Under the pieces are notes generated by a model that saw nothing but the letters and a program-made list of their open reading frames with translations, was not told where the DNA came from and did no database searches. Below, one piece after another: positions 29,488-35,530 of a stretch of DNA of 64,000 nucleotides (position 1 is the first letter of the stretch; each line of letters begins with the position of its first letter). A program made the position numbers and the translations under genes. Where the stretch lies: the NCBI GenBank assembly GCA_024281315.1, contig JAJSAE010000075.1:4222-68221 (forward strand), in the 5' to 3' direction. This DNA comes from an archaeon. GTDB lineage: Archaea; Thermoplasmatota; Thermoplasmata; JAJSAE01.

Positions 29488-32028
29488 TTATAAACCTTGC
29501 CCGCCAGCCGCCTCCGGTTCGTTCTCTGTCTTGACCTCATCTTCATCCGCTTTTTCGGCCAGTCTGGCCACAGCGCTTACCTTGTCGCCGCTTCTGAGCC
29601 TCATTATCCTTACGCCCTGCGTTGCTCTGCCCATGACCCGCAGGTCCGCAACCGACATTCTTATTATCATTCCTTCTTTGCTGGTGACTATAAGTTCGTC
29701 GCTGGGGGTGACCTCCAGAACAGCTTTGACCGGTCCGTTCCTCTCGTTCACCTTTATCGTGATAACGCCCTGAGAGCCGCGGTGCGTCCTCCTGTAATCC
29801 CTCACCCACGATAGTTTTCCATAGCCGTTTTCAGTAATTGTGAGAAGTATGGACGAATCATTACCGGTGGATGTGCTGACCACCTCGTCGTCTTTGCGCA
29901 GTCGTATTCCTATGACTCCGTGAGAATTCCTGCCCATTGGCCTCATTTCGCTCTCGTGGAATCTCGCGGCCTTTCCGTACTTTGTGGCTATAAGAACATC
30001 CCGGTCTCCGTCGGTAATTCTGGTGTCTATGAGTTCGTCGTCATCCCAGAGCGCAATAGCGATAATGCCCGTGGTTCTCGGTCTTGAATACGCCTCTAAT
30101 GGAGTCTTCTTCACTCTCCCTTTCTTCGTGGTGAAGAGCAGGAACCTGTCTCCGGTGAATTCTCTGACATGGATTGTGTTGACTATGGCCTCCCCCTTCT
30201 CCAACCTCGGCAGAAGATTCACTATGGGACGACCTTTGGCGTGCCTCCCAGCTTCCGGAATTCTGTAGGCTTTTAGCCAGTACACCCTTCCGCGGTTGCT
30301 GAAGAACATGATGTAACTGTGCGATGAGGTAACGAACATATCCACCACATCGTCCTCCTCCTTGGTTGTCATTCCCTTGAGCCCGACTCCGCCCCTTCTC
30401 TGCTGGTGGTAGGTGTCCACTGGCATCCTTTTTATATAGCCGGTTCGGGTGATGGTGATTACCACATCCTCCTCCGGTATCAGGTCTTCAATATCCATAT
30501 CTATCTCCTGATCAACAATATCCGTCTTCCTTCCGTCGCCGAACTTTTCTTTGAGGGCAATCAGGTCCTCCTTTATCATGGCCAGAATCCTCTCTTCCGT
30601 TGCGAGTATGTCCTTATAATCCTCTATCTTTTTCTGAACCTCGTCGTACTCCGCCTTGACAGCCTCCCTCTCCATGCCAGTGAGCTTCTGCAAGCGCATG
30701 TCGAGGATTGCCTTGGCCTGAACCTCTTTCAGGAGGAAGCGGGAGATAAGCGCAAGTTTTGCTTCGTCCACCGTCTTCGCCTTTCTTATGAGCCTTATGA
30801 CCTCGTCCAGATTGTCAAGTGCAATGAGGATACCGTCAAGTATGACAGCCCTGTCCTCCGCTTTTCTGAGAAGATACTGCGTCCTTCTGGTGATAACATC
30901 CTTCCTGTGCTCTATGTAGTGATGAATGAGAGATTTGAGGGGGAGTGTCTTCGGCTCGTTATTCACAAGGGCAAGATTGTTTATTCCGAATGTGGTCTCC
31001 AGCTGGGTGTGGGCGAATAGCTGATTCAGAACAATCTCCTCCATGACATCCTTCCTCAGTTCGATAACAATCCTCATGCCGGAGCGGTCCGATTCGTCCC
31101 GCAGGTCGGTTATTCCGTCTATCACCCTATCCCTCACCAATTTCGCAATGGCCTCCATGAGATTGGACTTGTTCACCATGTACGGTATTTCATTAACGAT
31201 AATTCTCCGCTTCCCGTTCTTCAACTCCTCTATATTCGTCTTTGCCCGAACCTTTATCGTGCCCCTGCCAGTGCTGTATGCGCGAAGTATGCCGCTTCTT
31301 CCATATATTGTTCCCACGGTGGGGAAATCCGGTCCGTTTATCACGGACATAAGGTCCAGAAGAGGAATTTCCGGGTCGTCAATCTGCATGATTATGGCAT
31401 CCACGACCTCGCTGAGGTTGTGCGGGGCCATGTTTGTGGCCATTCCAACCGCTATACCCGACGAGCCGTTCACAAGAAGATTGGGGAGGACAGCGGGGAG
31501 AACCGTAGGCTCCTTCAAACTGCCGTCGAAGTTGTCCACAAAATCCACGGTATCTTTGTCTATATCCTCCAGCATGGTGGCCGCAATCTTACCCAGCCTG
31601 CACTCGGTATATCTCATGGCCGCAGCCCTGTCACCGTCCACCGAGCCAAAGTTTCCCTGCCCGTCAACAAGCGTGTACCTGAGAGAAAACGGCTGAGCCA
31701 TCCTCACAAGGGAGTCATAGACCGCACTGTCACCGTGGGGGTGGTACTTACCGAGAACCTCTCCCACAACCCTTGCTGACTTCTTGTACGGCCTGCTGTG
31801 TATGAGGCCCATGTCGTTCATGGCGTAAAGGATTCTCCTGTGAACAGGTTTCAGGCCGTCCCTCACATCGGGCAGAGCGCGGCCAACAATGACGCTCATG
31901 GCGTAGTCTATGTAGGCCTTCTTCATCTCGTGCTCCACCGGCTCGTTAAGTATCGTCTCGCCGGAGGGGGCGGTCTGGTCCGTGTTATCATCGTCTGGCA
32001 TATCAATCATCTCCGAAACTCTCTTCAA
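29488..32028 (-). CDS. gyrA: DNA gyrase subunit A
   Basis: 846 aa. [44 protein letters not shown] and the AAMRYTE catalytic Tyr region, plus C-terminal beta-pinwheel repeats. The true start may be an internal Met (MIDM/MPDD), which would reduce the overlap with the RM gene. Confidence 0.95.
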
Positions 32029-35000: not shown

Positions 35001-35530
35001 GACTCCTTGGATAAGTAAAGCAGTTCATCAAACCTCTTTTCGTACTCCCCCACATCCTCGAAGGCCATAATCAGATTGCCGTTGAGTGCGTTAAACACCC
35101 TCAGCCTCTCGAAATTCGTGAGTATGGCCCACTTCACCGGCGGGTTTATGGATGCGGCGTAGTTCATTACCTGCCGCTCCTCCTCAATCCAGTCTATCGT
35201 TTTTCTGTCCACCCACGGGATTATCTGAAAGCGTTTCGCTTCCACAAATGCCACAGGCTGGCCGTCAATCATCAGGGTAATATCTGCGAATCCGGGCCGG
35301 ACATACATCTCCAGATTGTAATCATCCAGATTTTCCGTGTCCCAGCCGAGGATTTTAAAGAGCGGGTCTATGAATTTCTGTCGAACATCCGCTTCGCTTA
35401 TCTTCTTGAGGCCGTATGGCCTCTTTTTGTCAAAGAGCTCTCTGTACTTCTTCACAAGTTTTTTCAGTTCCTCTTTTTGCCGCTCCCTCTCTGCCCCTTC
35501 AGACATCAAGGTTAACGACCTCCCTCGCAT
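32003..35530 (-). CDS. Type IIG single-chain restriction-modification enzyme (N-terminal PD-(D/E)xK nuclease, N6-adenine gamma-class methyltransferase, C-terminal target-recognition region)
   Basis: 1175 aa. Nuclease motif [19 protein letters not shown]. MTase motif [13 protein letters not shown] and motif [12 protein letters not shown]. Long C-terminal TRD-like region. Visibly AT-richer than the flanking gyrase genes. Confidence 0.8.

Follow-up and report, generated by a model that had tools for sequence, protein, structure and literature searches.

A Type IIG restriction-modification gene between gyrB and gyrA of a Thermoplasmata archaeon: evidence for old residence and a replaced specificity end

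The usual picture of restriction-modification (RM) genes is one of transient occupants of genomic islands, often of foreign composition. Type IIG enzymes of the Eco57I/BpuSI type consist of an N-terminal nuclease, a helical connector, a gamma-class N6-adenine (m6A) methyltransferase and a C-terminal target recognition domain (TRD); BpuSI has been described (PMC3185434). Allelic diversity of a Type IIG gene, confined to the TRD between close relatives with conserved flanks, was reported by Furuta, Abe & Kobayashi (2010; PMC2853133), who also mention an RM gene inserted into an operon-like structure, and the TRD diversity of such genes has also been treated as 'domain movement' (PMC3077401). In Neisseria meningitidis, gene content varies by homologous recombination through conserved flanking genes (PMC3787668). 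Here we analyze a Type IIG gene that lies between gyrB and gyrA in a 64,000-nucleotide stretch of DNA (“the window”; positions 4,222 to 68,221 of contig JAJSAE010000075.1, assembly GCA_024281315.1) from an uncultured Thermoplasmata archaeon.

We read this gene as one that encodes an intact Type IIG enzyme, is an old resident of a gyrB-RM-gyrA unit, has had its TRD swapped, and belongs to a family holding fixed slots in essential operons; to this joint reading we give a probability of roughly 0.7. A preliminary description, made from the window's sequence alone, had taken the gene for a horizontally acquired insertion. All comparisons reported here use metagenome contigs and neighbor-joining trees; the loci (L numbers) were fetched from NCBI, JGI, ENA and Logan assemblies and classified by tblastn.

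The enzyme and its place between the gyrase genes

The RM open reading frame (ORF), of 1175 codons (32003-35530, minus strand), exists as the preliminary description had called it, between gyrB and gyrA and on the strand that they share. The features of the unit are as follows:

37442-37449, minus strand: TTTATAAA, candidate archaeal TATA box, 37 nt 5' of the gyrB ATG
35499-37412, minus strand: gyrB, 637 aa, first cistron (NCBIfam TIGR01059, 1019 bits, cut-off 882)
35499-35506, minus strand: overlap of gyrB stop and RM start, ATGTCTGA, 8 nt; an overlap of the same kind occurs in L096 and L090
32003-35506, minus strand: Type IIG RM gene, 1167 aa, identical (100%) to P0001; the longest possible ORF starts at 35530
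34961-35506, minus strand: PD-(D/E)xK nuclease domain, aa 1-182, catalytic D75, E89 and K91 (1167-aa numbering); Pfam HSDR_N, 39.8 bits
34481-34960, minus strand: helical connector, aa 183-342, from the secondary structure of the AlphaFold model
33581-34480, minus strand: gamma-class N6-adenine methyltransferase, aa 343-642, with motif I DPSCGSGSF and motif IV NPPY
32651-33580, minus strand: TRD, aa 643-952, Pfam TaqI_C; AT-shifted, exchangeable module
32006-32650, minus strand: conserved C-terminal domain, aa 953-1167, covered by PADLOC PDLC03629
32001-32010, minus strand: junction of RM stop and gyrA start, ATGATTGAtATG; 8-nt overlap or 1-nt gap
29488-32010, minus strand: gyrA, 840 aa, third cistron (NCBIfam TIGR01063, 1179 bits, cut-off 877)

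Assignment of the product to Type IIG, proposed earlier from motifs, was confirmed using profile searches. Across the 1175-aa ORF, Pfam matched HSDR_N (aa 81-150), N6_Mtase/Eco57I (aa 355-681; E=3e-44 for Eco57I over the full Pfam model, E=1e-22 for N6_Mtase) and TaqI_C (aa 787-959), and the PADLOC Type IIG model PDLC03604 (REase_MTase_IIG) matched end to end (E=6.5e-155; protein residues 9-979, model positions 5-963 of 1011). The nuclease and methyltransferase motifs first noted by the preliminary description are real: D83, E97 and K99 (1175-aa numbering), motif I (DPxCGSGSF) and NPPY showed no variation in alignments of 11 and of 60 homologues. The motif order is that of the gamma class (DPSCGSGSF at aa 405-413, then NPPY at aa 563-566, with TaqI_C further C-terminal), and nuclease and methyltransferase share one polypeptide, as expected of a single-chain Type IIG enzyme. 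The AlphaFold model reached a predicted local distance difference test score (pLDDT) of 86 and a predicted template-modeling score (pTM) of 0.70. Every domain is under purifying selection (omega, the ratio dN/dS of nonsynonymous to synonymous divergence, 0.05-0.24), with values of 0.07-0.08 for the nuclease, 0.10-0.11 for the helical connector, 0.08 for the methyltransferase, and 0.115 for the whole gene against L090. Judged from sequence, the product is probably an intact, active single-chain Type IIG RM enzyme.

The enzyme itself is an ordinary one of the Eco57I/BpuSI-like kind, neither MmeI-type nor BREX. An MmeI-like Type IIL assignment was rejected because Pfam MmeI_N scored 17.6 bits, below its cut-off of 27, MmeI_Mtase (48.7 bits) lay beneath the far stronger Eco57I match, the Pfam scan returned no MmeI TRD or C-terminal families, and the structure match to 5hr4 (E=2.8e-16) had 13% identity. 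The BREX protein PglX was rejected as well, since NCBIfam BREX models gave 60-125 bits against cut-offs of 400-900 and the neighbors are gyrB and gyrA. Tandem repeats and homopolymers that could serve as phase-variation switches were looked for, and none were found. No companion methyltransferase gene adjoins the RM gene, and two antisense ORFs inside it (31982-32749 and 33998-34459) have no Pfam match and were taken as spurious. In one family member, P0064, the N-terminal nuclease is apparently swapped for nucleotidyltransferase domains (PF18765, PF01909); this protein would be another effector on the same methyltransferase-TRD core.

By Pfam, the gyrB product carries HATPase_c, DNA_gyraseB, Toprim and DNA_gyraseB_C domains, and that of gyrA carries DNA_topoisoIV and six DNA_gyraseA_C repeats. 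Translation of the RM gene almost certainly begins at the ATG at 35506 (1167 aa, 8-nt overlap with gyrB), because homologues begin there, with M(S/T)(S)(D/E)G, and an in-frame stop in L081 forbids the longer ORF; of the overlap of 8-32 nt given by the preliminary description, the lower value was retained and the longer start at 35530 was discarded on these same grounds. A GGAGGT motif lies inside the gyrB end, 11 nt 5' of this ATG. At the other junction, gyrA starts either at ATG 32010, giving the 8-nt overlap ATGATTGA, or at ATG 32001, after a 1-nt gap. The former is the start of P0127, the 840-aa gyrA product on record for the contig; L101 and L163 suggest the latter, from which the protein would begin MPD. 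For both candidates the RM stop abuts or overlaps the gyrA start, as had been stated, and the TTG at 32028, from which gyrA had been drawn (29488-32028), is not its start. A Shine-Dalgarno-like GGAG lies in the last ~10 codons of the RM gene, which run up to, or overlap with, the gyrA start.

The gyrBA order and strand are kept in the window, with a 3.5-kb cistron between the two genes, and it is plausible that the RM gene is the middle cistron of the gyrase operon. We infer both co-transcription and translational coupling from the tight junctions, the Shine-Dalgarno-like motifs and the placement of the TATA box. Transcription of gyrB-RM-gyrA would begin 5' of gyrB, presumably from the TTTATAAA box at 37442-37449. 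Translation would be coupled at both junctions: the RM gene begins within the overlap with the gyrB stop, and the final RM codons contain, or immediately precede, the gyrA start and its ribosome-binding site (RBS). The pattern TTTAWAWA has only two matches on the minus strand of 29400-37600 (37442-37449 and 29487-29494), and within the gyrB-RM-gyrA unit we saw no TATA-like box or oligo-T terminator (a single T5 run occurs on the coding strand of 29400-37600), so that the co-transcription proposed by the preliminary description remains plausible. A sigma-70 scan gave counts at shuffle level, but its model is unsuited to archaea, and the TATA-box pattern was used instead; an Rfam scan of 28-39 kb returned no match. 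The second TTTATAAA box (29487-29494, minus strand) is found at the very end of gyrA, where it overlaps the stop codon, ~47 nt 5' of the ATG (29440) of a gene encoding a KaiC-like ATPase; together with the GAGGAGGA that follows, it forms a promoter-like element embedded in the gyrA 3' end. Topo VI is missing in Thermoplasmatales, and gyrase is believed to have taken its place in Thermoplasmata (PMC9348778), from which we expect gyrase to be essential in the window organism.

The slot in relatives, a scar-like spacer, and the age of the gene

The same gyrB-RM-gyrA unit was found in at least seven further Thermoplasmata lineages (L081/L082/L094, L086/L087/L097, L096, L090, L107, L002 and L101), with outer neighbors that vary between loci. 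Across these loci the gyrB/RM junction is an overlap of 8 nt (ATGTCTGA) or, in L081 and L086, of 11 nt (TTGACATCTGA), or else a 5-nt spacer; the RM/gyrA junction ranges from a 14-nt overlap through to a 3-nt gap, and the Shine-Dalgarno-like motif ahead of the gyrA start (GGAG or GAGGTGA) lies inside the RM end. Other Thermoplasmata (L001, L003, L004 and L013) have gyrB followed directly by gyrA; where the RM gene is lacking, as in the archaeal L004 and L005, the gyrA frame is open from the same gyrB-overlapping start. The premise of the preliminary description that gyrB and gyrA are normally adjacent is sound for archaeal gyrBA operons (PMC9348778), but not as a universal rule. In bacterial loci from some Selenomonadales and Peptococcaceae (L018/L019, 11890-14849; L072/L079; L075), 1.2-3 kb with separate ORFs lies between gyrB and gyrA; by tblastn, these ORFs are not RM homologues.

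Close relatives of the window's GyrA were sought in a collection of 5.8 billion proteins. The only ones (85% aa identity, all others being at or below 66%) sit on contigs L160-L163, which are fully syntenic with the window (an AhpC-like gene, then gyrB, gyrA and the KaiC-like gene, on to RIO1, eIF-1A, M50 peptidase, PolD DP1 and GlnA) and have no RM gene. The gyrB aa identities (window-L096 0.97, window-L160 0.89, L096-L160 0.90) place L160 as an outgroup of the RM-bearing window and L096. In L160-L163, the gyrB-gyrA spacer is 44 nt long. Read from the gyrB-overlapping TTG, it gives (L/M)ISEGLVRKYEIIEQSFGDD and a stop codon, a 20-codon mini-ORF that begins at the gyrB-overlapping position where the RM gene starts, is followed by the same ATGATTGATATGCCAGA gyrA start and shares its stop/ATG overlap with the window. 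The first residues of this mini-ORF are those of the RM start (MSEG) and its last ten are those of the RM C-terminus. At the nucleotide level, 20 of the 24 positions before the stop/ATG overlap are identical to the RM 3' end, and the best local match of the spacer in the 3.5-kb gene falls exactly there; its middle, LVRKY, tentatively resembles the RM residues LVKKY. The motif (I/V)(I/V)E(E/N)S(F/L)G at the C-terminus recurs in family members from unrelated contexts; the spacer would therefore derive from the RM gene, and the direction of change would be loss.

We therefore regard the spacer as a deletion scar. The RM gene would already have occupied the slot in the ancestor shared by the window lineage, its congeners L096 and L090, and the L160 lineage, the last of which appears to have lost ~3.45 kb by an in-frame internal deletion that kept the coupling chain from the gyrB stop to the gyrA start. 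The scar also provides direct evidence that the translation-initiation region of gyrA now appears to be contained within the RM 3' end.

These relatives bear on the explanation that the window carries a recent horizontal insertion, that is, a foreign Type IIG gene not yet ameliorated. The gene is indeed AT-richer than the gyrase genes, as the preliminary description had observed (GC 0.477 versus 0.553 and 0.521), its TRD stretch is at GC 0.42-0.45, four other Thermoplasmata loci (L001, L003, L004, L013) lack it, and in the relatives of clades G2 and A (the latter in an ATP synthase operon; both are treated below) the whole gene is strongly AT-shifted. Its composition is nevertheless typical of the window: the long ORFs (n=50) have GC 0.508 +/- 0.029 and GC at third codon positions (GC3) 0.597 +/- 0.053, and the RM gene has GC3 0.617 and the second lowest codon-usage distance among them. 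The outlier is gyrB (GC3 0.734), whose unusually high GC content accounts for most of the AT-richness seen relative to the gyrase genes; within the RM gene, low values are confined to the TRD segment (32651-33580; GC 0.432, GC3 0.523), which coincides with the trough in windowed GC. Against L096, moreover, the nuclease half of the gene is about as diverged as gyrB, and congeners hold either the gene or the scar at the same place. The preliminary description had reported no integrase, tRNA or flanking repeats, and we likewise found no integrase among the annotated neighbor genes, no tRNA in the 64-kb window, and only chance-level flanking repeats (14-32 nt at 66-94% identity), none of which bracket the RM gene. 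Neighboring genes are of the housekeeping type (AhpC-like, KaiC-like, RIO1, PolD, MCM), and the window as a whole is core chromosome (MCM, PolD DP1 and DP2, GlnA, AspRS, RIO1 and an AglB-like giant protein). With the gene in the same position in L096, L090, L081, L086, L107, L002 and L101, and the scar in the closest RM-less relatives, the insertion reading largely gave way; a recent insertion is very improbable, and for the N-terminal two thirds of the gene it is already contradicted.

How the gene has aged was examined against L096, a congener with 97% aa and 0.89 nt identity to the window in gyrB and syntenic upstream genes (dS, synonymous divergence):

gyrB: nt identity 0.89, dS 0.63
RM nuclease and helical parts (aa 1-340): nt identity 0.84, dS 0.81-0.98
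RM methyltransferase: nt identity 0.72, dS 1.66
RM TRD: unalignable (21% aa identity), dS not computable

The nuclease half has thus diverged about as far as gyrB, whereas the TRD is non-homologous between two close relatives that share the flanks and the N-terminal part, the allelic pattern known for Type IIG genes. The TRD of the window enzyme has 76% aa identity to that of L090 and 58-65% to those of L094 (gyrase operon), L159 and L095 (ATP synthase operon) and L085 (stand-alone). The methyltransferase is a mosaic, with 81% aa identity to L094, whose gyrB has only 72%, and 67% to the congener L096. As a consequence of these mixed identities, the domain trees conflict: the nuclease tree gives (L096,(L090,window)) at 100%, and the methyltransferase tree gives ((L090,window),L094) at 97.5%, with L096 outside. 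Among the segments of the gene, AT content peaks in the TRD at each of the 13 loci examined. We conclude that in the window lineage the AT-rich TRD, with part of the methyltransferase, appears to have been replaced, presumably changing the recognized sequence, and that the gene as a whole appears to be an old resident rather than a recent whole-gene insert. Of the horizontal acquisition proposed by the preliminary description, what stands is this replacement, along with the signs of AT-rich whole-gene exchange in other lineages.

A second slot and probable exchange between lineages

The A/V-type ATP synthase operon houses a sister clade of the enzyme between its atpF and atpA genes (L083/84/95, L091, L106, L108, L144 and L159); over the N-terminal part that was compared, these enzymes have 56-64% aa identity to that of the window. 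Junctions are again tight: in L159, the atpF TAA abuts the RM ATG, and the RM stop overlaps the atpA start by 1 nt (TAATG). In L083 (11486-12889), and also in L084 and L095, a SLFN_AlbA_2/HATPase_c_4 gene with GC3 0.31 overlaps the RM stop by 10 nt and precedes atpA; it is another AT-rich passenger of this operon, and is absent from L159. Two of the contigs with the atp-embedded gene (L106 and L144) come from the same JGI sample series, Ga0114934, as L161, which has the RM-less gyrBA with the scar. Other family members stand alone, with ordinary intergenic gaps; among them only L136/L137 and L104 overlap their neighbors, and no essential-operon context is seen. In L136/L137 (36% identity; RM gene at 2117-5677 in L136) the overlaps are 8 nt upstream and 4 nt downstream, with a YkoP-domain gene and a short or truncated ArsP-like permease fragment as neighbors, and this may be a third embedded context. 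In L110, the match to the RM query spans 4.9 kb (6001-10877) around an ORF of 3.25 kb, and a second partial copy or a split gene may lie downstream.

In neighbor-joining trees, three clades were recovered, each specific to one operon context: G1 (window, L090, L096, L094 and L097; gyrase operon) at bootstraps of 100% for residues 40-650 and 74% for nuclease plus helical parts, G2 (L107, L002 and L101; gyrase operon) at 100% and 96%, and A (the atp-operon loci) at 99% and 99.5%, respectively. In G2 and A, composition sets the RM gene apart from its flanks:

L107: RM GC3 0.39, flanks 0.64-0.67 (gyrB, gyrA)
L101: RM GC3 ~0.29 (TRD 0.18), flank 0.68 (gyrA)
L159: RM GC3 0.38, flank 0.54 (atpA)

So does divergence: in both clades, synonymous sites of the essential flanks have diverged 3-10 times more than those of the RM gene (pS, proportion of synonymous differences):

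L107 versus L002, flanks: gyrB pS 0.70 (dS ~2), nt identity ~0.80
L107 versus L002, RM aa 1-340: pS 0.36 (dS 0.48), nt identity 0.85-0.97, collapsing in mid-methyltransferase
L159 versus L083: flanks atpC, F, A, B and D pS 0.68-0.79; RM pS 0.45
L159 versus L091: atpC dS 1.47, atpF dS 0.71; RM dS 0.13

AT-richness combined with low synonymous divergence relative to the flanks suggests cross-lineage exchange into a fixed slot. The boundaries of similarity do not coincide with the gene ends; between L107 and L002 the similar tract begins ~100-150 nt inside the RM gene, and in the atp clade it reaches ~100-150 nt into atpF and atpA. This fits homologous recombination, using resident alleles and conserved flanks, rather than site-specific insertion.

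The same observations were weighed for a homing-like, site-specific mobile gene, which would have been inserted precisely and independently at the gyrB-stop/gyrA-start and atpF/atpA junctions by the RM enzyme or a helper. Occupation of two different essential-operon junctions, each with 0-11 nt spacing, would suit such an element, as would the low divergence and AT-richness of the RM gene in G2 and the atp clade, the failure of gyrase trees to resolve the RM-bearing lineages as monophyletic, and the highly conserved gyrB end, AACCTTGA(T/C)(G/A)TCTGA. We nonetheless consider it unlikely: no recombinase, repeats or target duplications were found, breakpoints are variable within flanks and RM gene instead of sharp at the gene ends, a search of viral contigs for a vehicle of the family returned no relatives, and the window lineage behaves vertically. 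The second slot bears equally on a functional coupling with gyrase, in which dosage or activity of the enzyme is tied to gyrase expression or supercoiling, or in which the enzyme serves as a housekeeping methyltransferase. Long retention inside gyrBA in several lineages, the apparently strict translational coupling and purifying selection on all domains are consistent with this idea. However, the link is not gyrase specific, given a sister clade embedded just as tightly in the ATP synthase operon and further members that stand alone; the gene is dispensable, having been lost in L160-L163; TRD turnover would be disfavored under a housekeeping epigenetic role; and the nuclease catalytic residues are invariant. 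Such a coupling is quite improbable.

Three observations concern other parts of the window. The 64 kb are rich in replication genes, namely MCM, the small and large subunits of PolD, and gyrase (839-2947, 23817-25292, 57924-61364 and 29488-37412). A 2193-aa ORF (6021-12602, plus strand) joins an STT3/AglB oligosaccharyltransferase N-terminus to many CarboxypepD_reg/transthyretin-like repeats, an AglB fusion of unusual length. A 449-aa ORF (27270-28619, minus strand), located downstream of the KaiC-like gene, combines a coiled-coil-like N-terminus with three C-terminal zinc-ribbon/double-zinc-ribbon modules.

A proposed history and its comparison with known systems

In the history that we propose, the enzyme family holds fixed slots at translationally coupled junctions in Thermoplasmata, between gyrB and gyrA and between atpF and atpA. 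The specificity end would turn over within the slot, the AT-rich TRD and part of the methyltransferase being replaced by a module akin to those of distant family members. Judging from the similarity gradients, alleles or segments would move across lineages by homologous recombination, for which the conserved parts of the RM gene and the conserved essential flanks would supply the homology. Retention would probably result from defense or addiction, plus the harm that most deletions would do to gyrA expression. More tentatively, and as a possibility that we do not favor over its negation, the family could be a selfish or defensive gene specialized for coupled junctions of essential operons, an “operon-junction hitch-hiker”. 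Such a gene would (i) borrow the operon's promoter and a start that overlaps the upstream stop, (ii) carry the downstream RBS in its own last codons, so that only rare in-frame deletions that keep this end, like the L160 scar, would be tolerated, and (iii) use its extremely conserved flanks as homology arms, by which alleles could sweep between lineages saturated at synonymous sites.

Several points weigh against the reading of the gene as an old resident of fixed slots. The 44-nt scar scores only ~4 standard deviations above shuffles against the 3.5-kb gene, and the best of 300 shuffles equals its score, so that the argument rests on position, reading frame and peptide motif. The whole-gene AT-richness that persists in G2 and the atp clade is unaccounted for by simple vertical residency. 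Support for the node joining G1 and G2, among the deeper relations of the RM genes, is 18%. The gyrB, gyrA and concatenated neighbor-joining trees are star-like, with the RM-bearing lineages monophyletic in 13 of 300 bootstraps, and beyond the window, L096, L090 and L160 they fit one ancient origin as well as several insertions at the junction. The benefit of “protection from deletion” is hypothetical. Finally, every relative is known only from metagenome contigs, and assembly could in principle have produced chimeras across a shared RM gene. In its strong form, this would mean that misassembly joined the RM gene to the gyrase genes, for which the metagenomic origin of all sequences and the high identity of RM genes common to several populations could speak. 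The same in-frame, overlapping junctions appear, however, in independent NCBI, JGI, ENA and Logan assemblies of divergent lineages, and the scar in L160-L163 records the arrangement independently; we consider an artifact of this kind exceedingly improbable.

If old residence with turnover is correct, one RM family occupies fixed slots in two essential operons that rank among the most conserved of an archaeal class, at junctions where the downstream essential gene would rely on the 3' end of the RM gene, with the recognition domain swapped in place and, in sister clades, an RM gene far younger than its flanks. This would be a testable example of long-term residency by operon entrenchment, combined with spread across lineages in which core genes act as recombination arms. 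Should the hitch-hiker interpretation also be true, it would constitute a strategy of persistence and spread distinct from defense islands, transposons, integrative elements and inteins. The arrangement bears on annotation and on the biology of Thermoplasmata gyrase, as gyrA expression would pass through a 3.5-kb foreign cistron, and the enzyme could supply new thermostable Type IIG specificities.

The predicted fold of the window enzyme aligns with BpuSI (3s1s) over ~1000 columns (E=1.6e-19), and the structures of BpuSI, PglX/BrxX, DrdV and MmeI align with the model over ~900-1300 columns at 13-14% identity; sequence identity to any solved Type IIG enzyme is no higher than this, and BpuSI was missed by sequence profile. 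The window enzyme has the domain order of the Eco57I/BpuSI type, from which it differs in that the TRD is followed by a further conserved domain of ~215 aa and that no companion methyltransferase gene is adjacent. Its methyltransferase-TRD half is best matched by M.TaqI, CamA and M.BseCI (profile E=1e-57; Foldseek TM ~0.72 and E ~1e-34 for CamA and M.BseCI); these proteins stand alone, whereas the window module is fused to a nuclease with intact catalytic residues.

A literature search returned no paper that places an RM gene between gyrB and gyrA or within an archaeal ATP synthase operon, and a survey of archaeal gyrase that describes gyrBA operons mentions neither “restriction” nor “methyltransferase” (PMC9348778); the genomic lifestyle of the enzyme appears to be unreported. 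The cases in PMC2853133 are bacterial and come with integrases, inverted repeats or long duplications of the target, of which the window gene shows none, and neither that paper nor PMC3077401 describes a case inside an essential operon with overlapping start/stop junctions, or one across deeply diverged lineages. The Neisseria meningitidis case (PMC3787668) is alike in that a variable gene lies between core genes and exchange tracts end in the flanks; that exchange is within a naturally transformable species, whereas here it would run across archaeal lineages with flanks saturated at synonymous sites, and into a slot within an operon.

Inteins and homing endonucleases occur in gyrA, gyrB and the ATPase A subunit, and so offer an analogy, though only that, of selfish nuclease-encoding elements that persist in essential genes of the same two systems. 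NCBIfam includes an intein-containing gyrA family, and two Methanomassiliicoccales GyrA homologues of 1245-1280 aa (P0211 and P0241) contain intein/homing-endonuclease domains (PF13403, PF14890). Inteins are in-frame insertions that are spliced out and home to a defined site; the RM gene is a separate cistron. Already known, then, are the allelic diversity of Type IIG TRDs, the insertion of an RM gene into an operon-like structure, and recombination through conserved flanks, while the new elements are the fixed, apparently coupled slots in essential operons, the entrenchment documented by a scar, the swapping of the TRD in situ, and the refilling of slots across lineages.

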